Counted from the stretch's first letter, positions 3,933 to 52,421 are shown. The stretch: 64,000 bases of DNA from Patescibacteria group bacterium (GCA_040387855.1 JAZKCY010000001.1:718922-782921), one strand, 5' to 3'. Notes: generated by a model from the sequence alone, not told the origin. A program made the numbers and translations.

Positions 3933-4006
3933 GGTGTAGTGGCGAAGCTGGTTAACGCGGCAGTCTGCAAAACTGCTATGCGCCGGTTCGATCCCGGCCT
4001 ACACCT
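3933..4006 (+). tRNA. tRNA-Cys (anticodon GCA)
   Basis: Manual cloverleaf. Acceptor ggtgtag/ctacacc; anticodon stem gcagt/actgc with loop ctGCAaa; T-loop ttcgatc; U73 discriminator as expected for Cys. CCA is not encoded. Confidence 0.85.
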
Positions 4007-4021
4007 CCGTTAGTAAAATAT

Positions 4022-4103
4022 GCCCGAGTGGTGGAATTGGTATACACGCACGACTTAAAATCGTGTCTCGCAAGGGATGTGGGTTCGACTCCCACCTCGG
4101 GCA
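4022..4103 (+). tRNA. tRNA-Leu (anticodon TAA), type II with long variable arm
   Basis: Acceptor gcccgag/ctcgggc; anticodon stem cacga/tcgtg with loop ctTAAaa; long variable arm; T-arm gtggg-ttcgact-cccac. Confidence 0.85.
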
Positions 4104-4114
4104 CAGATAAAATC

Positions 4115-6511: not shown

Positions 6512-7546
6512 AATATAGTTATATATATTTTTTATATCTTGCTTGAGCTCATCTGCAATATACAGATAATTATAAGGTTTAATTCTCTCTTCATATCTAA
6601 GTAATTTCTGCACAATATAAACTGTCGCAACTCCTAATACGAGCCCAGCAATAATATCGATGCCATAGTGTTGAATCGTAAATAGTGTCCCTAGCATATT
6701 TAAGATAAACCAAGGCACTAGAATATATCCTGAAGGCCTCCAAAGGCTCATAGCTGCATATAAAACGAGTATTGCCCATACAATGTGCATGCTTGGATTT
6801 GTGCTTACACTTAGCAATTTTCCAGCTGGATCAATCCAAAAACTGTCTATCTTGTCTATTTCTTGTGTGAGGTTCTCTGACAGCTTCATATTTTCTACTG
6901 AAGCCTGAATGTCAGAACTTATTGGCGCATTCAAAATATTTAATCTATACATTTCACTTGGAGCGATAGATGGCCATAATGCCCAGCATGCATACCCAAG
7001 TACATGTGAAATAAAAATACTTAAGATAAGTATTCTAAATACTTTCTTATTCATGCAGAATGCAAATACAAGAACTCCTAAGAGCAACAAAAATGCAGCA
7101 TGATATGAATACACTATAAGCATCTCTAAGAATACTGGATATGATATAGAGTGAATAAAAAAAGCTGGGTATACTCCAAATATCTTTTTATCAAGCATCA
7201 TGTACCAGTTACTTATTTCTGTAACTCTTTCAACAGATTGATGAGCAAATAAATAAAGAGTTGATAGTGCTAAAGTCACTAGTTCTAAAGACACAATACC
7301 TACAAGAACGATGCCACTCACAACTAGCTTCACAACAACATTATAAGAATGTTTATGCGCCACAAGCCATAAAGATTTTAAAACTACATAGCAGGCAATA
7401 CTCGCAATAAATACAGAGAGTAATACAATGAGATCGCCCGACAACGGTACCGTGTTTTTTGATCCATCAAAAAATATAAACAGTAAGAAAAGAACTGCGG
7501 GCACAACAATACAGTATAGTTCTAAGGGAAACTTACGTAACCACAT
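6500..7546 (-). CDS. PAP2-superfamily integral membrane protein (phosphatidic-acid-phosphatase / sphingolipid-phosphotransferase-like)
   Basis: The 348-aa polytopic product carries the PAP2 C2 and C3 motifs 'PSMH' and 'HYGIDIIAG'. Its 3' end overlaps the convergent upstream gene by 12 nt. Confidence 0.55.
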   Translation of the reverse strand: MWLRKFPLELYCIVVPAVLFLLFIFFDGSKNTVPLSGDLIVLLSVFIASIACYVVLKSLWLVAHKHSYNVVVKLVVSGIVLVGIVSLELVTLALSTLYLFAHQSVERVTEISNWYMMLDKKIFGVYPAFFIHSISYPVFLEMLIVYSYHAAFLLLLGVLVFAFCMNKKVFRILILSIFISHVLGYACWALWPSIAPSEMYRLNILNAPISSDIQASVENMKLSENLTQEIDKIDSFWIDPAGKLLSVSTNPSMHIVWAILVLYAAMSLWRPSGYILVPWFILNMLGTLFTIQHYGIDIIAGLVLGVATVYIVQKLLRYEERIKPYNYLYIADELKQDIKNIYNYILFK

Positions 7547-7616
7547 ATAGAGATTAGTATACCTGAACTTTAGCGAATATGGATTTTTTCACCATAATAT
7601 GTTATAAATTTTCTAC

Positions 7617-7689
7617 CCGCCCATAGCTCAGTTGGTAGAGCAGTCGCCTCTTAAGCGAATGGTCGTAGGTTCGACTCCTACTGGGCGGA
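7617..7689 (+). tRNA. tRNA-Lys (anticodon CTT)
   Basis: Acceptor ccgccca/tgggcgg (C1-G72); D-arm gctc-agttggtag-gagc; anticodon loop ctCTTaa; T-arm gtagg-ttcgact-cctac; discriminator A. The body is near-identical to canonical bacterial tRNA-Lys. Confidence 0.8.
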
Positions 7690-7693
7690 CAAT

Positions 7694-7735
7694 ACAACAA
7701 CCGTACACATATGTGTACGGTTGTTTGTTTCTTAT
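7694..7735. terminator. bidirectional rho-independent terminator
   Basis: A perfect palindrome 'acaaccgtacacatatgtgtacggttgt' is followed by tgtttgtttctt. It lies between tRNA-Lys on the + strand and the 3' end of the convergent 7735..10671 gene. Confidence 0.7.
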
Positions 7736-10671
7736 TAAATACCCATCATTGTTTTAGTTTGGCTGATAGCCGATGCAGCAGTATACGATGGCATCCAGTT
7801 GTCTTTTGACTGTTTTCGAGCTTCTCTAATAAAGGTGTCAAAATTTGGTTTTGTAGTCTGTGTAGCCGATGGACTTGTAGTATTTTGAAGCACTGTAAAT
7901 ACAGAACTCTGCGGTACAAGACCGTCAATTTTATTATTTCTTATGACAATATTACTTGAAGATGTTCGCCACGGGGCGGTGTTACTTGGTCGTACTCTAT
8001 ACAATTCAAATGCAACAGGCCACTTGTAAAATGTATTATTTTCTATGGTTATGTTATGAAATCCCACAGCATCATTTTGATAGGCACCATCTCCTGGCTC
8101 GAAACGAATAGCTCCATAAATTGGAGTTGTAGATTCATTGTAGGCAATAATGTTATTTGAAATTTCAACGCTTCTAATATTTGCTAGTTCGATTCCAAAA
8201 CCTCGAGGACCAGCATTTGGGCCTGAATCTATTGAACGTGTTCCCAACATAACATTATTAATAATTTTTCCTGTAACTCCTTTTGGAAACGTTTGTCCAT
8301 CTCCACGAACAAGTCCAAATGTCATATTCATTGGATTATTGTAGTAAAAATTCCCCTCAACTATTCCTCCACCTCTCACTTGAGTTCCGTGACTCGATGC
8401 ATTTGCTACAATATTATTACGTATTACCACTCCCCAGTTCATTGCATGAATGTACATATTGTGATCATAAATGGTACTTCCTGAGCCATCCAATTTTCTT
8501 CCGTTATTATCAACAACGTTATCTTCAATGATAAGTCCATTTACACCATATGCATAAATTCCCTGCGGCTTACCTCCCGATTTGTAGTTATCAACTATCA
8601 CTGAACGGCGAATAGTTATATTAGTCATAACTGGTCTATCGTTGGGTGTGTACACAAGTGGCCCTGATGAAAACACAATGCCTTTATTATGTCTTTCAAT
8701 GTAACAATCTTCAATGAGAATATTTCCTCCGCCGTTTGATGTACCTTCAAGTCCAATACCATTACCATTATTATTTCCTTTGAAATGAATACCTACAACA
8801 GCAAAATTTCTTGTATTAAATTCAAAAAACAATCCAAAATCTGAAGAAGTTATAATTGGACGAGCACCTGAACCATATGAAGTGAGTACAAATTTATCTG
8901 AATTTGATCGTCCTGAAACAACTTTGCCGTTTACAGAATTTCTAACCATACCATTCCAAGTATCCCCTTTTTTTAATCTAATCTGATCTGGATATCCTAG
9001 TCGAACTTGAGAAAATGCTTTAGCTATTGTCTTAAGTGGACTATCAATAGTTCCACTGTTTGCATCATTTCCTTCTGAACTAGACACATGTATAACCTTT
9101 GAATCAAATTTAGGTGAAATATTTGTATACCCGGTTATATTCGGATCAACAGGTAATGATGCGTTGACAATAGTTTGTGCTGTAAGTGATGTTGTACCAC
9201 CATTACCTACACAATTAATTATAAATATTTTTGTGCCTGTTGTAGTGATATTTGATAAAACCACCTCTCCTGTCGCACTTTGATTTCCACTCCAATCACC
9301 TGAAGCAGAACATCCTGTTGCATTAGTTGAACTCCATTGGATTCGAATATTTCCACCACTCGTAATCACTGGTGTAGCGTTCAATGTAACTACAGGCTTC
9401 AGACTTACTACAGGTGGAGTTACTGGTGGAGTAGTTGAATCTGTAACTGTAAACGTAATAGTTGTAGGTGTTCCCGCAACAAGTACACCATTAATCTGCT
9501 TATATGGAGTTGCAACCACGCTATGTGCACCTACCGTAGGAGTCCAAGCATTTGGTCCTTGCGCACCATCTCCAGCAAAAAAGAATGGCGCTTGAGATTG
9601 GGTTTGAAAATTGGCATTGCCATCATATCCAAACTTGACCTGCACAACATCTGCGGCAACATTTGCTTTAATGTTTATATTTTTGGAAGTAAGCGCTCCA
9701 AGATTAATGGTATTTCCAGAATTAAGACTCGTAAAACCAGGAACAATAGTTGTTGAATTTGCATAATACAATGACAAGCTATCAATTTTTGCTGAAGCAA
9801 CTGGTGCAGCAACACTAAATCGAATAACTTTTGGAGTTCCTGAAATAAAAGTACTTCCTGCTTGTTTAAACGGAGTAATAGTCAATGTGTGATTACCCAC
9901 TGTTGGCGTCCATGCATTCAATTTGCCAACTCCGTAGTCCCCCGCAAATGAATATGGTGCTGTAGCTTGAGAGGAATAATTGTCTTTTGTATCATATCCA
10001 AATTGGATTTTTGCAATCATCTCATTAGCATTTGGTTCTGCTAAAATATTTAGATTTTTAGTACCAATCTTATCAAAATCAATCACAGCTCCATCTTGAA
10101 ATACGAAATTCGCAACTGGCTTTTGGGTATCAGTATTAATTAATACTACTGTAGATATTTGTGTGGGAGGGGCAACATCAATGACGGTAAACTGAACTGA
10201 CAATGCGCGTCCAATGGTTCCTGTCGCATTTGTTTTTGAATATGGAGTAGCCTTAATAGTATGAGTACCTGTCGTAGGAGTCCATGCCCCATAATCAGTA
10301 CCTGAATCTCCTGCAAAAGAATATGGTGCTGTTACTTCAGTTGAAAAATTTGTAGTACTATCGTATGCAAAACGAACACTACCCACCGTGGCAGGATTTG
10401 TCTTAGCAACTAAATTGAGATTACGAGTGGGTAATGTCGCTAAGTTGAGTGTAGTTCCATTAGTAAAATTTTCATATCCAGGAATCACTTGATTTGAATC
10501 TGCATTTATGAGACTAAATCCAGTCACTGATGTAGAAGTGGTAAGCTGGGCAACAATTTGATTTACTGCTGCTGTAAATGACATATTATTTGTCATCAAC
10601 GCTCTTACAAAGACAAAGCTACCAATAAAAACTGCGAGTAATGCAACCGAAAGTGAGATTTTTTTTATCAC
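7735..10671 (-). CDS. large secreted protein: signal peptide, three tandem ~110-aa Ig-like repeats, and a C-terminal right-handed parallel beta-helix (pectin-lyase-fold) domain
   Basis: The 978-aa product has a GTG start, a signal peptide 'MIKKISLSVALLAVFIGSFVFVRA', and three repeats each containing '...APYSFAGD.G...AWTPT.G.H...TPY/FK'. The C-terminal half is N/G-rich with beta-helix turn motifs such as 'NILIEDCYIERHNKGIVF' and 'NNVVDNNG'. Confidence 0.8.
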   Translation of the reverse strand: MIKKISLSVALLAVFIGSFVFVRALMTNNMSFTAAVNQIVAQLTTSTSVTGFSLINADSNQVIPGYENFTNGTTLNLATLPTRNLNLVAKTNPATVGSVRFAYDSTTNFSTEVTAPYSFAGDSGTDYGAWTPTTGTHTIKATPYSKTNATGTIGRALSVQFTVIDVAPPTQISTVVLINTDTQKPVANFVFQDGAVIDFDKIGTKNLNILAEPNANEMIAKIQFGYDTKDNYSSQATAPYSFAGDYGVGKLNAWTPTVGNHTLTITPFKQAGSTFISGTPKVIRFSVAAPVASAKIDSLSLYYANSTTIVPGFTSLNSGNTINLGALTSKNINIKANVAADVVQVKFGYDGNANFQTQSQAPFFFAGDGAQGPNAWTPTVGAHSVVATPYKQINGVLVAGTPTTITFTVTDSTTPPVTPPVVSLKPVVTLNATPVITSGGNIRIQWSSTNATGCSASGDWSGNQSATGEVVLSNITTTGTKIFIINCVGNGGTTSLTAQTIVNASLPVDPNITGYTNISPKFDSKVIHVSSSEGNDANSGTIDSPLKTIAKAFSQVRLGYPDQIRLKKGDTWNGMVRNSVNGKVVSGRSNSDKFVLTSYGSGARPIITSSDFGLFFEFNTRNFAVVGIHFKGNNNGNGIGLEGTSNGGGNILIEDCYIERHNKGIVFSSGPLVYTPNDRPVMTNITIRRSVIVDNYKSGGKPQGIYAYGVNGLIIEDNVVDNNGRKLDGSGSTIYDHNMYIHAMNWGVVIRNNIVANASSHGTQVRGGGIVEGNFYYNNPMNMTFGLVRGDGQTFPKGVTGKIINNVMLGTRSIDSGPNAGPRGFGIELANIRSVEISNNIIAYNESTTPIYGAIRFEPGDGAYQNDAVGFHNITIENNTFYKWPVAFELYRVRPSNTAPWRTSSSNIVIRNNKIDGLVPQSSVFTVLQNTTSPSATQTTKPNFDTFIREARKQSKDNWMPSYTAASAISQTKTMMGI
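9410..10500. repeat. three tandem ~330-bp intragenic repeats encoding Ig-like modules
   Basis: The protein-level repeat motif YSFAGD...AWTPTxGxH occurs three times, at about aa 60-420 of the 7735..10671 product. Confidence 0.6.
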
Positions 10672-12128: not shown

Positions 12129-12210
12129 GGGCGAGTGGCGGAATTGGTATACGCGCTAGTCTTAGGAACTAGTTCCTCACGGATTGGGAGTTCGAGTCTC
12201 CCCTCGCCCA
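12129..12210 (+). tRNA. tRNA-Leu (anticodon TAG), type II
   Basis: Acceptor gggcgag/ctcgccc; anticodon stem ctagt/actag with loop ctTAGga; long variable arm; T-arm gggag-ttcgagt-ctccc; discriminator A. Confidence 0.85.
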
Positions 12211-12223
12211 CAGTCAAGCAAAG

Positions 12224-12265
12224 AACCTTACAAAGCTTTTATGGCTCTATGTAAGGTTTTTTTGT
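12224..12265 (+). terminator. rho-independent terminator after tRNA-Leu(TAG)
   Basis: Stem aaccttaca/tgtaaggtt followed by ttttttg. Confidence 0.6.
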
Positions 12266-12277
12266 GTATCTCATCTA

Positions 12278-12307
12278 TTGACAAATAGGCACATATTGTG
12301 ATATAAT
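12278..12307 (+). promoter_or_regulatory. near-consensus sigma70 promoter driving the high-GC island
   Basis: -35 TTGACA at 12278-12283; an 18-nt spacer ending in TG (extended -10); -10 TATAAT at 12302-12307. A GGAG/AAGG ribosome-binding site precedes the ATG at 12376. Confidence 0.6.
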
Positions 12308-12375
12308 ACAGTCTGGTCCTTTGACAACCCAATCTACAACACAAACACCACGTAGTACGTGGAGAAAGGCACCCG

Positions 12376-13632
12376 ATGAACCCAGTTACACAACTGATCA
12401 TTGGTGGAGTGGCGTTCCTCGTGTGCGCCCTCCTCCTCGACATCCTCTGCGAAGAGGTGTGGAGGCCGCTCAAGCCCAAGTTCATGCGTTCGTTGTTTGG
12501 CCGTAAAAAGCGGAACGACGACGATGACAACAAGCCTCAGCACGATAGTGAGGTGAAGCGTTGGAGAAAGTTGAGGACTGCGTTTGCACTAACATTCGCA
12601 GCGATCTGCTTCTTCCTCCCCTTGTTCCTCATGCGACTTGCTCTACAAGACATCGACCCTCGGCTCAACCAGCTGATGGTGTTTGTGAGCTTGTACATCA
12701 TGTGGCATTTCGTGTCTGATGTCCTGCCGAAAATTAGCGTGTACGTGCCGGAAGGACAAGGACTCCTTACCCTCAACCAGTTCACGAAGAAGTTCGTCAT
12801 CTACGGACAGGGATTTAGCTTCCGTTTCCCTTGGGAGACGGTGCACGAGAAGAACCACATCTCGCTCCAGGACCTTACAATCCAGGTGCGCAAGATCAGC
12901 ATCCCCACCAAGGGTGCGAAAATCTACTTGTCGTTCCAGTTCAGCTGGAAGCCGCGTCTGAGCGACCTCGACGTGTTCTTCCAGATCGGTGGCAACATGG
13001 CTGAAGGAGTGTCGGAGAGGTTCCGCGCTATCTTCGAGGAGTTCTTTACCTCGCAGATTCGTCGGATACCTGCCGAAGTCGCTAGCAATGGGCAAATGAT
13101 CCTGAGCTGGTTGGCCCGGTCGGTGTTTGACATCGATCAAGACGAGATCAACCTTGATGACCCAAAAATCAGGAAGATCTACGAAAGGATGTCGAAGTAC
13201 GTCACCCTCGACGGCCAGCAAGGTGCGTTGAGGAATACCCGTCGTGCTCGTGAGCGCAAGTTCGGTGTCGACATGAATACCGTTGAGATAACGGACTTCG
13301 ATTTCGACAGGGATGTCCAAGAGGCACGGAACGCCATCGACATCCTTCGCAAGATGGGCCCGGCTATGCGAAAAAGCATGGGCATCAGTCAGGAGGCTTG
13401 GGAGAAGACCTATGTTAACCCTGACGATCCTGGCGCTCATCAGAGATACCTTGAGCTGTTTCAACAGTTTACGGTCATCACGAAGGACGCCAAGTCAACT
13501 ATCGTCGCAATCCAAGGCGGTAGTAATCAGGGTGATCCGCTGGTGCGAGCTGCTCTTGCAGAGCTTGCGGCCAAATCTCCCGATCCTGTGTTCCAAGCGG
13601 CGTTTGCCCAACTCTTGGCTGCAATGAAGTAA
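12376..13632 (+). CDS. SPFH/band-7 (flotillin/stomatin/HflKC-like) membrane protein, encoded in a high-GC island
   Basis: The 418-aa product has N-terminal TM helices. Its SPFH-like core reads 'VPEGQGLL...FVIYGQGFSFRFPW-ETVHEKNHISLQDLTIQVRKISIPTKGAKIYLSFQFSWKP', compared with the family pattern V.E.E.GVV.rfG..pGlhf.iP..d.v.kvd.R.q..d...q.v.TkD. A later stretch 'FGVDMNTVEITDFDFDRDVQEARNA' matches 'GIEV.sV.I.Di.pP.eVq.Af' and is followed by a helical tail. GC is about 55-58%, against about 38% in the flanks. Confidence 0.55.
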   Translation: MNPVTQLIIGGVAFLVCALLLDILCEEVWRPLKPKFMRSLFGRKKRNDDDDNKPQHDSEVKRWRKLRTAFALTFAAICFFLPLFLMRLALQDIDPRLNQLMVFVSLYIMWHFVSDVLPKISVYVPEGQGLLTLNQFTKKFVIYGQGFSFRFPWETVHEKNHISLQDLTIQVRKISIPTKGAKIYLSFQFSWKPRLSDLDVFFQIGGNMAEGVSERFRAIFEEFFTSQIRRIPAEVASNGQMILSWLARSVFDIDQDEINLDDPKIRKIYERMSKYVTLDGQQGALRNTRRARERKFGVDMNTVEITDFDFDRDVQEARNAIDILRKMGPAMRKSMGISQEAWEKTYVNPDDPGAHQRYLELFQQFTVITKDAKSTIVAIQGGSNQGDPLVRAALAELAAKSPDPVFQAAFAQLLAAMK

Positions 13633-13653
13633 CCTTTCTACAGGAGAAACATC

Positions 13654-14004
13654 ATGGCCAAGAATAAAGGCCAAGACAACAAGTCCGACGACAAGAAACC
13701 GGATGACAAGAAACCGGAACAGAAGAAGTCGCCGGAGCAGATCAACCAAGACGAGATGAAAAATCGCTCGTCAGCGTGGATGAAAGAAGGTCGCGAGAAC
13801 GGCACTAATGGATACAAAGAGTTCTACCCGCGAAATCGTCGCGGAGGATTCTACATCCTGCATGTCATTTTCGCGCTCTGGATCGTGTACGTGGTGATCC
13901 ACACCGCGCGCGAAGAGAAGTCCAAACCCAAGCTCAAACCCCAAGAAAGGAGTGTCCCGAAATGGACAGTAAACACAGCTGGATCGCCCTCCCTATCAGC
14001 GTGA
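13654..14004 (+). CDS. small hypothetical membrane protein (Lys/Asp-rich N-terminus, one TM helix)
   Basis: The 116-aa product lies in the island, is high-GC, and has the TM helix 'FYILHVIFALWIVYVVIHTA'. It is co-directional with the island's SPFH gene. Confidence 0.5.
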   Translation: MAKNKGQDNKSDDKKPDDKKPEQKKSPEQINQDEMKNRSSAWMKEGRENGTNGYKEFYPRNRRGGFYILHVIFALWIVYVVIHTAREEKSKPKLKPQERSVPKWTVNTAGSPSLSA

Positions 14005-14606
14005 TCGTCCTAGCGTTCATCCTCCGAGACTCAGTCTCTACGTTGGTGAACAAGTGGACGACACCCGTGAGGGAGCCGACGATGCAGGAGGCCGTCGACA
14101 AGTTCAATGCCGATAAGGCACGTATCGTGGCTGAGCAGCAAGCTGCCGCGAAAGCAACGGAAGCCATGAAGGCTTCCTTGCTCGGACCGGATTCAACGGC
14201 TTCATCGCCCACGAGTTCGACAACACCGAGCGGAACGCGGATCACACCGCCGCCCGTGTTCGTGTACCAGCCGGGCACAACGCCCGACTACCTACCCTGG
14301 CCAGATGGCAGGGCAGCGCTCATCGCCCCGAGCAGGTTCGATGGCCCACTTGAAGAAGTGAGCATGCGCGCACAAGACTACTACCCTGGCCTGCCTGCAG
14401 GTGTGGTCTACGATTGCGTGATTGTCGTAGAAACCGGAAAGCAAATCTGGATCTACGGCAATGGCTTCCGCGATTCGGCAGCTCATCGACTGCCGGCTCA
14501 TACCGACCTTAGCGGAAAGCCGCTACCGCGGTACCGGCTCATCGACATGATGTCGGTGAACGAGAGTCCCGTAAAGGTGACCCTCGAGTTCAACCGGAAG
14601 AAGTAG
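13962..14606 (+). CDS. hypothetical membrane-anchored protein (N-terminal signal-anchor, Ser/Thr/Pro-rich linker, C-terminal beta-rich domain)
   Basis: The 214-aa product has the N-terminus 'MDSKHSWIALPISVIVLAFIL'. It overlaps the preceding small ORF by 43 nt, so the start is uncertain. It is high-GC. Confidence 0.5.
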   Translation: MDSKHSWIALPISVIVLAFILRDSVSTLVNKWTTPVREPTMQEAVDKFNADKARIVAEQQAAAKATEAMKASLLGPDSTASSPTSSTTPSGTRITPPPVFVYQPGTTPDYLPWPDGRAALIAPSRFDGPLEEVSMRAQDYYPGLPAGVVYDCVIVVETGKQIWIYGNGFRDSAAHRLPAHTDLSGKPLPRYRLIDMMSVNESPVKVTLEFNRKK

Positions 14607-14658
14607 CCGTTGTAGATCGGGCGAAGCAGTTCATTGTGACTTCGGTCACACAAGCCAA

Positions 14659-14697: not shown

Positions 14698-14721
14698 TTA
14701 CTCAAATCTCACTTTTTATAC

Positions 14722-14762
14722 AAAAAAAATAACCGCTTACACATGTAAGCGGTTATTTTTTA
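14722..14762. terminator. bidirectional terminator (A-tract / palindrome / T-tract)
   Basis: 'aaaaaaaataaccgcttacacatgtaagcggttattttt'. It overlaps the stop codon of the minus-strand pilin-like gene that ends at 14760. Confidence 0.65.
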
Positions 14763-15152
14763 AAATGATCCCTTATCTATAGTCGATGGAGTAAGGATTG
14801 TATCACCATTTAAATCTTCTGCTGTTCCACCATCTGTGACAGTGCTGAAAATAAACTGTGTGATTCCAAACGCTGAGAGCATGATTGCCATACCGATGAC
14901 TGCCCAAATCATATGCTTCCGTCCTTTATCTCTCTCCTCACTACTTGCTGCATTCCAGAGATATTTTACTGCCCCATAAAGGAAATATATAAGAGCTACT
15001 GCAAACAAAAGCCAAATAAGTGGAGCTACTATTTCACTAAGAATCTTATCAACTACGGGCTGAGCCGCTCCTAATGCAGATGCTCCTAACATAATATCTT
15101 TGTAATAATTAGTCGAGAATTTCTGGCTGTGCCTGAACTCCAGGAATTTCAC
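14760..15152 (-). CDS. TrbC/VirB2-like (type IV secretion pilin-like) small membrane protein, paralog 1 (no signal peptide)
   Basis: It carries the 2-TM module shared with the four upstream genes ('IVAPLIWLLFAVALIYFLYGAVKYLW...RKHMIWAVIGMAIMLSAFGI'). An alternative start at Met21 (15092) would remove the 44-nt overlap with the upstream gene. Confidence 0.6.
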   Translation of the reverse strand: MKFLEFRHSQKFSTNYYKDIMLGASALGAAQPVVDKILSEIVAPLIWLLFAVALIYFLYGAVKYLWNAASSEERDKGRKHMIWAVIGMAIMLSAFGITQFIFSTVTDGGTAEDLNGDTILTPSTIDKGSF

Positions 15153-15504
15153 TACTATTTAGCTGAGCTGGATCCAAACCGAATGCACTGATGAGAAGTC
15201 GTGAAATACCGAAAATACCGAGGATAACGGTAACACCAACGATTGACCATACGAGGAATTCTCGTGCCTTCTTTGCATCTTCAGGTCCTTTTGCAAGGAT
15301 AACTCGGATAACTCCGATGATGAACATTACGATCGCAAGCGCAATGAAGAACGGAATAGCGTAGTTTAATACGTTAGTCAAGTTCATAATTGTCGATGTA
15401 AGTCCATCGGCATTGAATCCACTTGGATCGATATCCTGTGCAGATGCCATTGATGGTACAAGTACCAATGCAAACATGAGTGCTGCTACTATTTTCTTTT
15501 TCAT
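15109..15504 (-). CDS. TrbC/VirB2-like pilin-family protein, paralog 2
   Basis: The 131-aa product has the signal peptide 'MKKKIVAALMFALVLVPSMASA' and the C-terminal 2-TM module 'NYAIPFFIALAIVMFIIGVIRVIL...AREFLVWSIVGVTVILGIFGI'. Confidence 0.65.
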   Translation of the reverse strand: MKKKIVAALMFALVLVPSMASAQDIDPSGFNADGLTSTIMNLTNVLNYAIPFFIALAIVMFIIGVIRVILAKGPEDAKKAREFLVWSIVGVTVILGIFGISRLLISAFGLDPAQLNSSEIPGVQAQPEILD

Positions 15505-15604
15505 ACTACTATTATTTATAACGATGACCTTGCTAATAAAAAACTATATAGTGTAATTATCTCTTATTTCAACTAAAAAGACAACACAACTGTGGATATC
15601 TTAC

Positions 15605-16306
15605 TTATGTTGTATCTACTGGAAAACCAGGTGGCGTTGGCCCGGTGCCTGGAGGATAATAATCAACACCATCTGGAACTGATGATTCACAGCCGTTACT
15701 ATTTATAGTTCCAAAAACCATTCCACTGAGCAATCGTGCAATTCCCCACAAGCTAAGGATAGCGGTCATTCCTATAATACTAAACACAATAAATCTTCTA
15801 CCATCTTCAATCTTTTTTGGATCTCCACTAAAGATGTATTTTATTACACCTATAATAAATCCAATAAAGGCAACAAGGATAAGAAACGGAACAAGATAAT
15901 TACCAGCATTAACAATTTGACCTATTACATTTTCCAAAGAACTTGTTGGACCTGATGTTGGTGAAACTACACAAACTAATGGTGATTCTGCGCTTGGAAA
16001 AAAAGATCCTTTAACCAAAAGGGCTAATCCCCACACAGAGAGCATGACACTTACGGTGATAATACCGTACACAATATAGCTCCGTGCCTCTGCTATTTTT
16101 TTGGGATCAGCACTATATATATACTTAATGATACCTATAATAAATCCAATCAATGCTAATAAGAAAAATAAAGGGACAAGTGCATTTGCAATACCAATAA
16201 GCATGCCCACTAAATCTTTTAGATTTTTGGGATCATCGGCAAATACCTGATTCGGTAGGAGAATTAGTGCTAGGGTTATAATTGTTATTAATTTTTTAAA
16301 CATCAA
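15605..16306 (-). CDS. TrbC/VirB2-like pilin-family protein with two tandem pilin modules, paralog 3
   Basis: The 233-aa product has a signal peptide and two copies of the module ('LVPLFFLLALIGFIIGIIKYIYSADPKKIAEARSYIVYGIITVSVMLSVWGLALL' and 'LVPFLILVAFIGFIIGVIKYIFSGDPKKIEDGRRFIVFSIIGMTAILSLWGIARLL'). The C-terminus is Pro/Gly-rich. Confidence 0.65.
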   Translation of the reverse strand: MMFKKLITIITLALILLPNQVFADDPKNLKDLVGMLIGIANALVPLFFLLALIGFIIGIIKYIYSADPKKIAEARSYIVYGIITVSVMLSVWGLALLVKGSFFPSAESPLVCVVSPTSGPTSSLENVIGQIVNAGNYLVPFLILVAFIGFIIGVIKYIFSGDPKKIEDGRRFIVFSIIGMTAILSLWGIARLLSGMVFGTINSNGCESSVPDGVDYYPPGTGPTPPGFPVDTT

Positions 16307-16324
16307 AATAGTATTTAAACCATG

Positions 16325-16810
16325 TTAATCTGCCTCGGGTGCTGCACAAATACTTGCTCCTGGATTGAAGCTTGTTGTAATACTTGAAACTGTATTAAAT
16401 ACGACTTTTGCAATAACAGATGCTCCTAAAAGAATTGCCAATCCAATAACCGTTGTATAGAACGTACTCTTTGCTTTCTGAATTTCTTCAGGTTTACCTT
16501 GAGCTTTAATGAACAGGAATCCCGCCCAAATGATAAATAACACTCCTACAATTGCTCCAATCTCAGCTACAATATTTAGAATTTGATTAATAAGATCGCA
16601 TAAGTTCCCTATTCCGCTATCATCATCAAAAGGATTATCTAAAGCAACATCGGGCAAACCACCTGGAACAGTGGGCTCCTCACCTCCAGTGACAACAGGC
16701 GGTGCTGGAGGTGTTACTGCATCAACAGCATATACATTTCTCTGACCTACTGACGTAATAGCCAGCAGCATAAATAGCAACCCAGCTAATATTTTACAGA
16801 ATTTTTTCAT
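16325..16810 (-). CDS. TrbC/VirB2-like pilin-family protein, paralog 4
   Basis: The 161-aa product has a signal peptide and the module 'IVAEIGAIVGVLFIIWAGFLFIKAQGKPEEIQKAKSTFYTTVIGLAILLGASVIA'. Confidence 0.65.
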   Translation of the reverse strand: MKKFCKILAGLLFMLLAITSVGQRNVYAVDAVTPPAPPVVTGGEEPTVPGGLPDVALDNPFDDDSGIGNLCDLINQILNIVAEIGAIVGVLFIIWAGFLFIKAQGKPEEIQKAKSTFYTTVIGLAILLGASVIAKVVFNTVSSITTSFNPGASICAAPEAD

Positions 16811-16812
16811 AA

Positions 16813-17499
16813 TTATGGTTTTAAGAACATATTAAATTCATCACTCAAGAATGTTGAAGTAATTAAATAGACAATTAACCATGCAGAAAGAATAATAATA
16901 AATCCAATCATTACTTTGCCGGCAATTTCTTTTGCCTGCGTAACTTTTGAAGCATTGCCGCCAGCAGTGAGCAACAAAATTCCCACATAGGTAAATGCAA
17001 TTACGGTGAGTGGAATCGAAATCGTAAACATCACATTGATAAGATTTTGTATTAGAATTACAACATCATTGAAACCACATTCTTTATATTTATCATTAGC
17101 AGCAGTAAGTGCATCATCTGCCGCCCCATCAGATGGGTCAACACCTTCAAATCGAGCTTTTATTGTTTGCCCTTTTGTAAGAACTGTACCATTGTAATCA
17201 TATGTCTCACCTGTATAGGTAACATCATAATCTACTCCATGACTAACATTGTTTCTAAGATCTGGTGGAGTACCTTTATTTATCTTAAATCTATTGGCTG
17301 GAATGTATTCTCCTCCCACATTAAATTGAGCATGTTCATCATATACCTTTTGGTATGCTGTTTCTGCTTCACCAGAATATTGAGTTCCATTACAAGGAAT
17401 TATTGCTGAGAGCTGAGCTTGTGCAATAAGTGGAACTCCAACCAAAAGGAAGACTGCGAAGCAAAAACTTATTACTGATGTGAACGTGATTTTTTTCAT
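16813..17499 (-). CDS. TrbC/VirB2-like pilin-family protein, paralog 5 (larger extracellular N-domain)
   Basis: The 228-aa product has a signal peptide, an extracellular domain of about 130 aa, and the 2-TM module 'ISIPLTVIAFTYVGILLLTAGGNASKVTQAKEIAGKVMIGFIIILSAWLIV'. Confidence 0.65.
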   Translation of the reverse strand: MKKITFTSVISFCFAVFLLVGVPLIAQAQLSAIIPCNGTQYSGEAETAYQKVYDEHAQFNVGGEYIPANRFKINKGTPPDLRNNVSHGVDYDVTYTGETYDYNGTVLTKGQTIKARFEGVDPSDGAADDALTAANDKYKECGFNDVVILIQNLINVMFTISIPLTVIAFTYVGILLLTAGGNASKVTQAKEIAGKVMIGFIIILSAWLIVYLITSTFLSDEFNMFLKP

Positions 17500-17501
17500 A
17501 T

Positions 17502-18809
17502 TTATTTTACAGCCGAAATTGAATCCACCATTTCTCCATGGGCTTGTTGAATAGCATTCTCAACTCCCATTCGATTTGAAGTTACTGACTCGATCATATC
17601 TTTGAAAATAATCGCAGACTTTTTGTAATCAGGATCTAGCCACCCTCGAGAAATAAGTGCTGATGTAGCAAAAATATTTGATTCAGCTTTACTAGCATCA
17701 ATTCCTAATGAATCTCTTCGTACTGAAGGTAATGTAGTTTGCTTCACCCAAGTTGGGATTAGTTTAGCTGATGTAAGCAATCGCATAGCTTTCATTGTAG
17801 CAGCAGGATTTCGTGTACTTCGTGCGATAGATAATCCCGACATTTTTCCATAGGTCATATTGTTTGCAGCAACTCCTGTCTGAGGTTTACGTTGAGGAAT
17901 AACTGCAACATCATAATTAAGATTTGGATTTCGAATACTAATTTCCCTAAATTCACTTGCTAAGCCAAAATACACAGCTAATCTATTTGAAGTGAAATAT
18001 GTTTTTGCATCAGGAAGTGATCGATTCCAGCTATATACCTGCTTTATAGGATTAGCAAATTGCGTGTAAAACGATAATGCCGAGTTTGCAGGTGATAATG
18101 CATTTGAAGAAGCTGCTGTTGTAAGTGTAGCTCGAAGATTACCATTATTTTTAACAGTAATCGGATTACCTGCTTGCATCATAAGAAGACTCAATGTCTC
18201 TTTTGCATGAGTAATATTAGTATATTCCCCTAGTCCCACAGCACTCTGGATAATGTTTGTGGCTGCATCTTTTTTAGTAAGTTCCAATGGCAATGCTAGA
18301 AAATCTTCCCAATACTTTGGAGGAGTAGAAATAAGCGCATTAGTAAATATGTCTCTATTCCAATACATAACCATTGGATCTACAGCAAATGGTAATGCCA
18401 AAACTCCTGTTGAATCTAAGTATAGTTCACCTTCTTGAATAAATGTTGTTTTAAACTCTTTTTCCGGATAACTATCGTATGGAATCTGAGTGATTTTACT
18501 CTTGAATAGCCAAACCATGTCGTGTGGAAGTAACAAAATATCTGGACCTGTCCCACTTACAAGGGACTCAACATAATTTTGATACATTGTTTCAGGACGA
18601 AGCTGACGGTAAGTAAATGTAAATTCTTCATTTGATGAAGCTTGCGCAATTTTAAGATAGTCACTTACCATTCCTCCATCAAGAGTTCCCCAGATTTTTA
18701 CATTGTAGGTAGTGTCCTTTGTCCCTCCTTTATAAAGGGCAAACAACGTAAGACCACCTGCCACTGCTGCTATAAATATTCCAAATACTACAATCTGAAA
18801 TTTAGACAT
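17502..18809 (-). CDS. membrane-anchored extracellular solute-binding protein (ABC-transporter SBP family 1-like), orphan
   Basis: The 435-aa product has an N-terminal TM anchor and an SBP_bac_1-like fold ('VLALPFAVDPMVMYWNRDIF'). It is co-oriented with the pilin array, 2 nt upstream. No permease or ATPase gene is in the window. Confidence 0.6.
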   Translation of the reverse strand: MSKFQIVVFGIFIAAVAGGLTLFALYKGGTKDTTYNVKIWGTLDGGMVSDYLKIAQASSNEEFTFTYRQLRPETMYQNYVESLVSGTGPDILLLPHDMVWLFKSKITQIPYDSYPEKEFKTTFIQEGELYLDSTGVLALPFAVDPMVMYWNRDIFTNALISTPPKYWEDFLALPLELTKKDAATNIIQSAVGLGEYTNITHAKETLSLLMMQAGNPITVKNNGNLRATLTTAASSNALSPANSALSFYTQFANPIKQVYSWNRSLPDAKTYFTSNRLAVYFGLASEFREISIRNPNLNYDVAVIPQRKPQTGVAANNMTYGKMSGLSIARSTRNPAATMKAMRLLTSAKLIPTWVKQTTLPSVRRDSLGIDASKAESNIFATSALISRGWLDPDYKKSAIIFKDMIESVTSNRMGVENAIQQAHGEMVDSISAVK

Positions 18810-18811
18810 TG

Positions 18812-19342
18812 TTAATTTTTTCTTACGACAAACCCATAATGATGATCCCCTGCATCCATGGTGTTCACAGATACAAATCCATGTTTCTTAAAAAGCTCCG
18901 TAGCCACATCTTCAGTAACCACATGATCTGGATGTGGTCCAAGGCCTCCAAATGACTCTGCCCAATCGACAACAAGAACTCTTCCTCCTGATTTCAAGAT
19001 TCGCTTTACTTCAATAATAAAATCATCCTTCTTTTCAACTTGAAATAGTATGTTGCATACAAATGCAACATCTATAGATTGATCTTTAAGTCGAGTTCCG
19101 CCGAGCCGTTCTATATCACCGTGAATTATTTCAACGTTTGTGTAGTGAGCTGCATGAGCAGAGCTTTTAATGCGAGTAAGTAATTCTTGCTGCACATCGA
19201 TTGCATATACTCTTCCGCCAGCACCCACGGTATGAGCAGCAGCTAGTGTATAGAATCCCGAACCAGCTCCAAGATCTGCAACATACGATCCTTCAGCCAA
19301 ACCTAAACTATCAATATTTTTTTGCGGATCTGAAAATGCCAT
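18812..19342 (-). CDS. class I SAM-dependent methyltransferase
   Basis: The 176-aa product has motif I 'VADLGAGSGFYT', an acidic motif II 'VYAIDV', and 'GGRVLVVDW'. Confidence 0.8.
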   Translation of the reverse strand: MAFSDPQKNIDSLGLAEGSYVADLGAGSGFYTLAAAHTVGAGGRVYAIDVQQELLTRIKSSAHAAHYTNVEIIHGDIERLGGTRLKDQSIDVAFVCNILFQVEKKDDFIIEVKRILKSGGRVLVVDWAESFGGLGPHPDHVVTEDVATELFKKHGFVSVNTMDAGDHHYGFVVRKN

Positions 19343-19396
19343 AATATTTCTATTATAGCAGCCTCAGCATAAATATATAAGGAATAGTTATCAACA

Positions 19397-52116: not shown

Positions 52117-52123
52117 GATGTGT

Positions 52124-52421
52124 ATGCCTTGCATCGATAAGCCGAATTCTGTCGTGGATAATCATTTATCTGGGCCCACCCTTACGAGTGAGCTCAAGCG
52201 GCACTCCCAACTCAACCTTGCGGCTTCGTGGGCTCGGCCTTGCACCTAGGTAAGAATTTAGCCGTTTCACTCCCACTAAAGGGATTCGTCACTGTTCGCA
52301 TCTCGGTAGCTCGCATACAAGCTACGACGGGCGTTACCCGCTACCCTACTGCTCTTTCAAGCAAGTGTTCGGACTTTCCTCACCTCACCTTGCGATGAAG
52401 CGCGATTATCTAATGCAAGAT
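52124..52421 (-). ncRNA. rnpB: RNase P RNA (bacterial type A, compact ~300 nt)
   Basis: The reverse strand contains universally conserved blocks: '...GGUGAGGAAAGUCCGAACAC' (P4 5' strand, compare E. coli GGGGAGGAAAGUCCGGGCUCC); 'AGGGUAGCGGGUAACGCCCG' (compare AGGGCAGGUAACGCCUGGG); and 'CAGAUAAAUGAUUAUCCACGACAGAAUUCGGCUUAUCG' (compare CUAGAUGAAUGACUGUCCACGACAGAACCCGGCUUAUCGG). P1 is cuugcau/augcaag. A TTGATT-16-TATAAT promoter lies at 52428-52455 on the minus strand. Exact ends are ±5 nt. Confidence 0.88.

Follow-up and report, generated by a model that had tools for sequence, protein, structure and literature searches.

Tandem arrays of genes for VirB2-like pilins have been published for the Patescibacteria in 2023 and 2025. 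In Southlakia epibionticum (Saccharibacteria), an essential series of predicted pilins is encoded within a type IV secretion system (T4SS) locus (PMC10633639). Furthermore, a survey of 3,035 Patescibacteria genomes reported 441 arrays of 2-11 pilin genes in 383 assemblies, with a mean mutual identity of 25% and a maximum of 54%, which were most abundant in Microgenomatia and Saccharimonadia; in Paceibacteria, virB4 was usually found near dnaA and dnaN (PMC12102498). A 2025 review pointed out that a monoderm T4SS may have its first pilus in these arrays (PMC12857230), and the role of T4SS and pilin arrays in Patescibacteria has been described as completely unknown (PMC11665869). Here, we characterized an array of five pilin genes that follows a gene for a family-1 solute-binding protein (SBP) in 64 kb of DNA from a Patescibacteria group bacterium (GCA_040387855.1, JAZKCY010000001.1:718922-782921). 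This whole 64-kb stretch is called the window, and all coordinates refer to it. An initial annotation, made from the sequence without knowledge of its origin, had described this pilin architecture as one that is expanded in genomes of the candidate phyla radiation (CPR), and indeed the organism belongs to the Patescibacteria/Paceibacteria, as do its relatives (Paceibacteria/Parcubacteria). Published arrays are defined as two or more pilin genes of low mutual identity in Patescibacteria that are in tandem or have one other gene between them, a description that also fits the window array, so that the array in itself cannot be called new. None of the publications on the arrays cited above connects them with an SBP. 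The word "solute-binding" is absent from the text of PMC12102498, and a full-text literature search for Parcubacteria together with solute-binding protein and pilin returned nothing; the constant partnership with an SBP across Paceibacteria, SBP-pilin fusions, positional orthology of the pilins and a first subunit that swaps domains are apparently unreported so far.

The locus consists of seven consecutive open reading frames (ORFs) on the minus strand between 19342 and 14760, in the order methyltransferase (MT), SBP, P5, P4, P3, P2 and P1, where P1-P5 are the five pilin ORFs, P5 occupies array position 1 and P1 is the last. The features are as follows, with bit scores against Pfam families.

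19352..19394, minus strand: promoter-like elements in the 54-nt gyrA-MT spacer, from a consensus scan and direct reading of the sequence.
18812..19342, minus strand: MT, class I S-adenosylmethionine (SAM)-dependent methyltransferase, 176 aa, cytoplasmic, first gene of the operon; Methyltransf_31, 67.9 bits.
17502..18809, minus strand: SBP, family-1 carbohydrate-type, membrane-anchored, 435 aa; SBP_bac_1, 50.8 bits (cut-off 26).
16813..17499, minus strand: P5, array position 1, 228 aa, with signal peptide, Cys loop insert and two-helix module; PF18895, 32.2 bits.
16325..16810, minus strand: P4, array position 2, 161 aa; PF18895, 42.2 bits, and PF04956, 29.9 bits.
15605..16306, minus strand: P3, array position 3, 232-233 aa, tandem double module; PF18895, 44.4 bits, in two stretches.
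15109..15504, minus strand: P2, penultimate, 131 aa, signal peptide and module; PF18895, 29.5 bits.
14760..15092, minus strand: P1, last, 110 aa from ATG, without signal peptide; PF18895, 42.1 bits.
14716..14761, minus strand: intrinsic terminator, a perfect 18-bp inverted repeat followed by a minus-strand T run.

ORF calls and Pfam matches confirmed the initial gene content, namely five pilin ORFs with six modules behind the SBP and MT, downstream of gyrA. The packing is largely as tight as first described (gaps of 2-20 nt), except that the spacer from P3 to P2 measures 100 nt. Two start codons needed attention. The P1 ORF extends upstream to a GTG at 15152, where a start would entail a 44-nt overlap with the preceding gene; most likely, translation begins at the ATG at 15092, giving 110 aa in agreement with an independent gene call. 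Likewise, P3 probably starts at an ATG one codon further in, which gives 232 aa. In the gyrA-MT spacer, the minus strand carries the hexamers TTGATA and TATGCT separated by 17 nt (19394-19366) and a perfect TATAAT (19357-19352) located 9 nt ahead of the MT start codon, which presumably act as promoter. At the other end, the terminator arms (14724-14741 and 14744-14761) are 100% complementary and overlap the P1 stop codon. With the hexamers upstream and the hairpin and T run after P1, the unit is bounded at ~19394 and ~14716.

We next compared the locus with those of related species. Loci were fetched with an alignment of the SBP family, taking one genome per species, and 80 loci were kept, with five more from exact-protein look-ups; ORFs were called and labelled with purpose-built hidden Markov models (HMMs). 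Relatives of the SBP are encoded in at least 592 species genomes, from the Parcubacteria lineages Campbell-, Zambryski-, Wolfe-, Taylor- and Adlerbacteria and Paceibacteria. A nearly universal gene order was observed, that is, S1 (minus strand), Lactamase_B_3, a small ORF, gyrA, MT, SBP and then a number of pilins. In every one of the 73 loci that have at least 600 nt beyond the SBP gene, a pilin gene follows it directly; gyrA was present in 61 of 67 related loci and MT in 73 of 78. Median gaps were 175 nt for gyrA-MT, 5 nt for MT-SBP and 2 nt for SBP-first pilin (76 loci for the last), indicating that the operon starts at MT, within the gyrA-MT spacer, and that the SBP and the first pilins are translationally coupled. 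Where no contig end truncates the array, it contains 2-8 pilin genes, with a mode of five, and searches seeded with pilins instead of the SBP came back to the same context in two of three cases.

To compare the pilins themselves, we searched every other locus for the best match of each window pilin and noted where in the array it lay, with the following results.

P5: best match at position 1 in 74 of 74 loci.
P4: best match at position 2 in 62 of 74 loci.
P3: best match at position 3 in 34 of 69 loci.
P2: best match at the penultimate position in 46 of 70 loci.
P1: best match at the last position in 59 of 69 loci.

Copy numbers were counted in the 65 arrays of four or more genes, where the position-2 type was single-copy throughout and the position-1 type was so in 54. 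The other three types, at later positions, had 0-4 copies per array and were shorter, with medians of 100-123 aa. Positional orthology and copy numbers together indicate that the array is ancient, with distinct subunits in a set order and some expansion at later positions. The initial annotation had regarded the array as a variable repertoire of surface filaments or adhesins, a view that is hard to maintain when the window pilins match the same array position in most genomes.

The first subunit differs from the others in carrying large and varied ectodomains. P5 has a Sec signal peptide and a loop between Cys36 and Cys141 with a 104-residue insert, followed by the two-helix module. In the AlphaFold2 model of P5 (predicted local distance difference test, pLDDT, 73.9), a helical hairpin (143-178 and 183-217) is preceded by an alpha/beta insert at 43-137, so that the insert is, at moderate confidence, predicted to be a small alpha/beta domain; no homologue of it was found among 5.8 billion proteins. 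Typically, a pair of cysteines encloses a loop immediately ahead of helix 1 in position-1 pilins, 52 of 76 of which have exactly two cysteines. The loop is 0-36 residues long in 33 relatives versus 104 in the window, the longest of the 34 measurable sequences. Other position-1 pilins carry Cys-rich segments, and that of locus L085 (P0134) carries an FN3 domain. The position-1 pilin of locus L042 (4722-6347, plus strand, 541 aa) has an N-terminal subtilisin-like domain of ~400 residues, with the subtilase-like motifs HGT and GSSFAAP as read from the translation; in this case, a VirB2-like pilin would display a protease.

In two species (loci L064 and L072), a single reading frame joins the SBP to the position-1 pilin; the resulting proteins have 568 and 561 aa, and four further pilins are encoded downstream. 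Such fusion proteins recurred in eight cluster members and four contigs from independent assemblies, indicating that they are not sequencing errors. Note that an apparent SBP-pilin fusion of 506 aa in another locus (L062) was rejected as an artefact of an N run in the contig.

The SBP also matches SBP_bac_8 (48.9 bits). Its AlphaFold2 model (mean pLDDT 94.9) shows an N-terminal helix (residues 3-27) followed by a complete two-lobe class II fold, so that a sugar-SBP-like fold is predicted to be intact. The best Foldseek matches were oligosaccharide SBPs, with template-modelling (TM) scores of 0.66-0.78, identities of 14-20% and E ~1e-21; with profile searches taken in as well, the nearest structures were the sucrose/maltotriose protein Atu4361, the mannooligosaccharide protein CpMnBP1, a beta-1,2-glucooligosaccharide SBP and MalE, and an hhalign comparison with MalE gave 95% probability. 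Foldseek matches labelled 'MBP-PilA' and 'PilW' (5cfv and 7t31) are crystallisation chimeras with MalE and were set aside as uninformative for pilus biology. On reading the sequence, the SBP N-terminus, MSKFQIVVFGIFIAAVAGGLTLFALYKGG, was found to have no cysteine or lipobox and no AxA-type site. The sequence of the N-terminal helix is conserved across the family, with F4, G19 and F23 nearly invariant, which suggests that the helix is a retained membrane anchor making specific helix contacts.

As for the pilins, all of P1-P5 exceeded the gathering score of PF18895 (T4SS_pilin, 26.6 bits), and P4 also exceeded that of PF04956 (TrbC/VirB2, 27.9 bits), in accordance with the family first assigned to them. 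With PF04956, P1 (17.1 bits) and P2 (15.6 bits) stayed below the gathering score, and P3 and P5 gave no match; the NCBIfam entry 'pilin-like conjugal transfer protein' gave sub-threshold matches for four of the five. Among 100 array members including those of the window, 98 matched PF18895 and 18 matched TrbC/VirB2 (E <= 0.001). Hydropathy showed one membrane-helix pair per module, and hence two pairs in P3, and the six modules align over ~75 residues around a K/R-rich basic loop. Pairwise protein identity between modules was 18-41%, except for the two P3 modules, which share 49%. P2-P5 have canonical Sec leaders, P4 continuing with a proline-rich spacer of ~45 residues before its pilin module, so that the signal peptide first ascribed to every pilin is borne out for these four; P1 has none from its ATG start. 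The earlier claim of two modules in the P3 gene was upheld by two PF18895 stretches and by an internal duplication, seen as a 285-nt direct repeat (15774-15895 and 16059-16180) with 72% nucleotide identity over 122 nt. Between the two modules, the ratio of nonsynonymous to synonymous substitution (dN/dS) was 0.24 and dS was ~1.5, indicating that the duplication is old and that both copies are under purifying selection. We did not retain the double module as an unusual trait; for ~27 of the 150 best-matching relatives, the alignment extends over both modules. When an HMM of the module, built from the window and related loci, was run on the six-frame translation of the whole window, it matched exactly the five pilin ORFs, with no further match at E <= 10.

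We then looked at what else is encoded around the array. Pfam scans covered ~56 window ORFs, nearly all of those with at least 110 aa. None of these was VirB4, VirD4 or a secretin, as the initial annotation had stated, and none was VirB3, VirB6, an ATP-binding cassette (ABC) permease or an ABC ATPase. VirB3, VirB4, VirB6, permease and ATPase genes were also missing from the annotated flanks of five related loci (L002, L003, L004, L085 and L086). In 1.23 Mb of sequence from 82 related loci, a single ORF had both a Walker-A and an LSGGQ motif, and it did not adjoin the SBP gene. The families found in the window were housekeeping ones, including IF-2, gyrA, S1, Pth, signal peptidase, FtsA and FtsZ, as well as LepA, MurJ, a ValRS-type synthetase, GatB, Obg and enolase.

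The SBP had been proposed at the outset to be a tip or receptor-binding component rather than a transporter subunit. The second half of this proposal is strengthened by the lack of a permease or ATPase in the window, the single ORF with ABC motifs in 1.23 Mb, the 2-nt gap to the first pilin and the fusions, and we consider the chances evenly balanced that the SBP is a pilin-associated carbohydrate-type receptor and not part of a transporter. A location at a tip fares less well, as the apparently uncleaved N-terminal helix argues somewhat against it.

In this reading, P5 to P2 would be exported by Sec and inserted as helical hairpins, with the basic loop in the cytoplasm and both ends outside, while P1, which has no signal peptide, would insert on its own. 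The pilins would polymerise into one hetero-oligomeric envelope structure in which positions 1 and 2 are single-copy specialised subunits, and the shorter later positions, variable in copy number, are candidate bulk subunits. Assembly may be carried out by the monoderm-type T4SS that most Patescibacteria encode elsewhere, by analogy with the array of Saccharibacteria. Together with the position-1 pilin, the SBP would then bind a ligand, probably an oligosaccharide or glycan, at the exposed surface instead of feeding an ABC importer, and the position-1 pilin would be the subunit displaying variable ectodomains. A likely use would be recognition of, or capture from, the surface of a host cell. 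A bolder version, to which we give low confidence, is that Paceibacteria build an envelope structure of VirB2 type, as a filament or as a membrane complex, whose first subunit bears the carbohydrate-binding SBP or is fused to it, and that other lineages exchange this head at the same pilin position for an FN3 domain, a protease or an orphan domain. In that case, the receptor of a classical transporter would have been co-opted by a T4SS-derived organelle to recognise a host or ligand. For the largest class of the CPR, a constant, coupled and sometimes fused SBP would provide a concrete hypothesis, namely glycan recognition or capture at the host surface, and the SBP, as a soluble protein, offers a handle for ligand screening. 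Positional orthology would also mean that arrays are to be read as a defined multi-subunit set and not as interchangeable variants. If, however, the link between SBP and pilins is only one of synteny, the locus is simply another case of something already described.

Several results weigh against the proposal of a pilin-associated receptor. The array is not adjacent to any T4SS gene in the 64-kb window, and a profile of the six modules searched against Protein Data Bank (PDB) sequences matched no solved VirB2, TraA or TrbC chain, returning only a designed coiled coil, HtrII and helices of cytochrome oxidase. Neither did the P5 model give a Foldseek match in the PDB with E < 0.6, a weak negative given the medium confidence of the model. 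The apparent link to conjugative pilins is therefore one of Pfam profiles only, and, to our knowledge, these proteins have not been observed as a pilus in any Patescibacterium. With regard to the ligand, the mapping of MalE sugar contacts by hhalign was reliable only near D144, which is near-invariant and aligned with E111. The apparently uncleaved SBP helix is kept in the fusions, which would bring the number of their membrane helices to three; an extruded filament is less compatible with this than a membrane-resident complex. Finally, the entire S1-LacB3-gyrA-MT-SBP region has kept its gene order, and synteny alone is weak functional evidence.

The main rival, which we regard as doubtful, is a membrane-resident complex, in which the two-helix proteins are integral subunits that work with the anchored SBP, for example as an SBP-dependent conduit or sensor without an ABC ATPase. 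The 12 membrane helices of the window array lie in VirB2-like hairpins, and an apparently uncleaved and conserved SBP helix that is retained in fusions, a last pilin without signal peptide, the lack of a nearby T4SS gene and the lack of a match to any solved pilin by sequence or fold are all consistent with such a complex, as is a gene for an SPFH/Band_7 membrane scaffold, found in convergent orientation with the array at 33 of 54 loci. Nevertheless, the Pfam relationship of these proteins is to pilin families, the equivalent array of Saccharibacteria lies inside a T4SS locus (PMC10633639), no transporter of such a build is known, and an array size of 2-8 genes would be odd for a channel of fixed stoichiometry.

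It is less likely still than the membrane complex that the protein is the ordinary SBP of an ABC sugar importer encoded elsewhere, whose place before the pilins is merely inherited gene order. Orphan SBP genes are known in other bacteria, the fold is intact, confidently predicted and closest to sugar SBPs, and synteny across the clade extends to the rest of the neighbourhood (S1, LacB3, gyrA). However, inherited order does not readily account for a median SBP-pilin gap of 2 nt over 76 loci, for co-occurrence in 73 of 73 or for in-frame fusions that persist in two species and many assemblies, and no permease or ATPase was found in the window or within ~10 kb in some 80 loci.

Equally improbable is a set of interchangeable pilin variants for antigenic or host-range variation, in analogy with Bartonella and Anaplasma and as raised in PMC12102498, because, despite low paralogue identity (18-49%), 0-4 copies of the later types per array and a highly variable position-1 ectodomain, positional orthology holds even where SBP identity drops to 40-55%, the first two positions are single-copy, the P3 modules are an old duplication under purifying selection, and no recent duplication or gene conversion was detected at the DNA level apart from the P3 internal repeat.

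The MT, the first gene of the operon, also scored above threshold for Methyltransf_11 (61.3 bits) and Methyltransf_25. Its best solved relative is 3dh0, an uncharacterised SAM methyltransferase, and its nearest relatives are generic enzymes of small-molecule type. In the five species without MT, gyrA abuts the SBP gene and the SBP-pilin module is intact. We therefore dropped MT as an obligate partner, for example as a pilin methylase, and a functional role for it in the system found no support.

Just beyond the operon terminator, on the opposite strand, lies a GC-rich segment of 2.4 kb (~12220-14650) that begins after tRNA-Leu(TAG). Its GC content is 52-59%, and GC at third codon positions (GC3) is 0.66-0.70 versus 0.20-0.36 in neighbouring genes. 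The segment contains three plus-strand genes (12376-13632, 13654-14004 and 13962-14606) for an SPFH/Band_7-like protein of 418 aa and two uncharacterised proteins. The convergent SPFH/Band_7-like gene mentioned above (~390-445 aa) is found 0-4 kb after the last pilin in those 33 of the 54 loci with enough sequence, and the median GC3 of these downstream genes is 0.13 above that of the SBP. They fall into at least three sequence clusters, two of which are interrelated, and that of the window is linked to them only via Pfam Band_7. A word-indexed search for homologues of the window's SPFH protein found only the protein itself, and an iterated HMM search reached four loci. A downstream rise in GC of at least 10 points was seen in 54% of loci versus 2% in an upstream control. 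Proteins of the segment are 24-34% identical where the SBPs are 49-55% and gyrA 81-84% identical, indicating much faster divergence, and the segment gave no PADLOC hit. A recent one-off horizontal transfer is unlikely since the same site is GC-enriched in many species; the SPFH-like gene may have been kept next to the array for functional reasons, or the site may be a variable hotspot.

In relatives such as L085, tRNA-Cys, tRNA-Leu(TAA), tRNA-Lys(CTT) and tRNA-Leu(TAG) are contiguous within ~420 nt. In the window (tRNAs at 3933-4104, 7617-7690 and 12129-12211), blocks of 3.5-4.4 kb separate tRNA-Leu(TAA), tRNA-Lys and tRNA-Leu(TAG), which suggests repeated insertion next to tRNA genes. The first block encodes a DCC1-like/MauE protein of 827 aa and a PAP2 protein, and then come proteins of 978 and 470 aa without Pfam match. 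The 978-aa protein (7735-10671, minus strand) is a secreted protein with three repeats of ~115 residues in its N-terminal half; its C-terminal half, as read from the translation, resembles a parallel beta-helix, and it may be a surface or host-interaction protein. Elsewhere in the window, RNase P RNA of class A was detected at 52122-52421 (minus strand; 121.6 bits), which at ~300 nt is short over the 367-position model. As for gyrA in related loci, the ORF in L036 is 1213 aa long, and in L002, a 1.0-Mb Joint Genome Institute (JGI) relative, gyrA was called as four fragments of 181, 70, 157 and 306 aa (6552-9022), which is suggestive of frameshifts or misassembly in that contig, or of a gyrA that is disrupted or contains an intein.

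Compared with known systems, the locus is closest to the other Patescibacteria arrays, with which it shares PF18895 and PF04956, tandem genes of low identity (18-49% here), an ultrasmall monoderm host and Sec-type signal peptides. It differs from the Southlakia and other published arrays in being located outside a T4SS locus, in being apparently co-transcribed with a carbohydrate-type SBP and in occurring in Paceibacteria. With VirB2 of the Agrobacterium T pilus, TrbC of RP4 and TraA of the F pilus, the window pilins have in common a small size, a signal peptide, two helices and a short basic loop. Unlike those systems, however, there is no adjacent VirB3 or VirB4 and no match to the solved chains, the host is monoderm, and instead of one major pilin there are five distinct paralogues, of which one has large ectodomains and one is leaderless. 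Sets of major and minor (pseudo)pilins of type IV pili and type II secretion likewise come from an ordered operon with specialised subunits that carry or recruit exposed binding domains, but the analogy is functional only; the fold here is unrelated, there is no class III leader and no N-terminal Phe/Glu5, and the protein is a hairpin rather than a helix with a globular head.

Binding proteins that are linked to a T4SS by genetics or function, have no permease of their own and serve in recognition or signalling instead of a dedicated importer are represented by PrgZ, which captures pheromone for pCF10, and ChvE, which senses sugars via VirA in Agrobacterium. PrgZ is a family-5 peptide binder that passes its ligand to the host Opp permease, and ChvE, an SBP of another class, is encoded apart from pilin genes; we know of no case in which either is fused to, or translationally coupled with, a pilin. 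Finally, the window SBP has the same fold and belongs to the same Pfam family as the oligosaccharide SBPs of ABC importers, namely Atu4361 (4qsd/4qrz), CpMnBP1 (4r9f/4r9g), Tlet_1705 (5ci5) and MalE, whereas it is distinguished from them by its membrane-helix anchor, by the lack of nearby permease and ATPase genes and by the pilin genes that always follow it.

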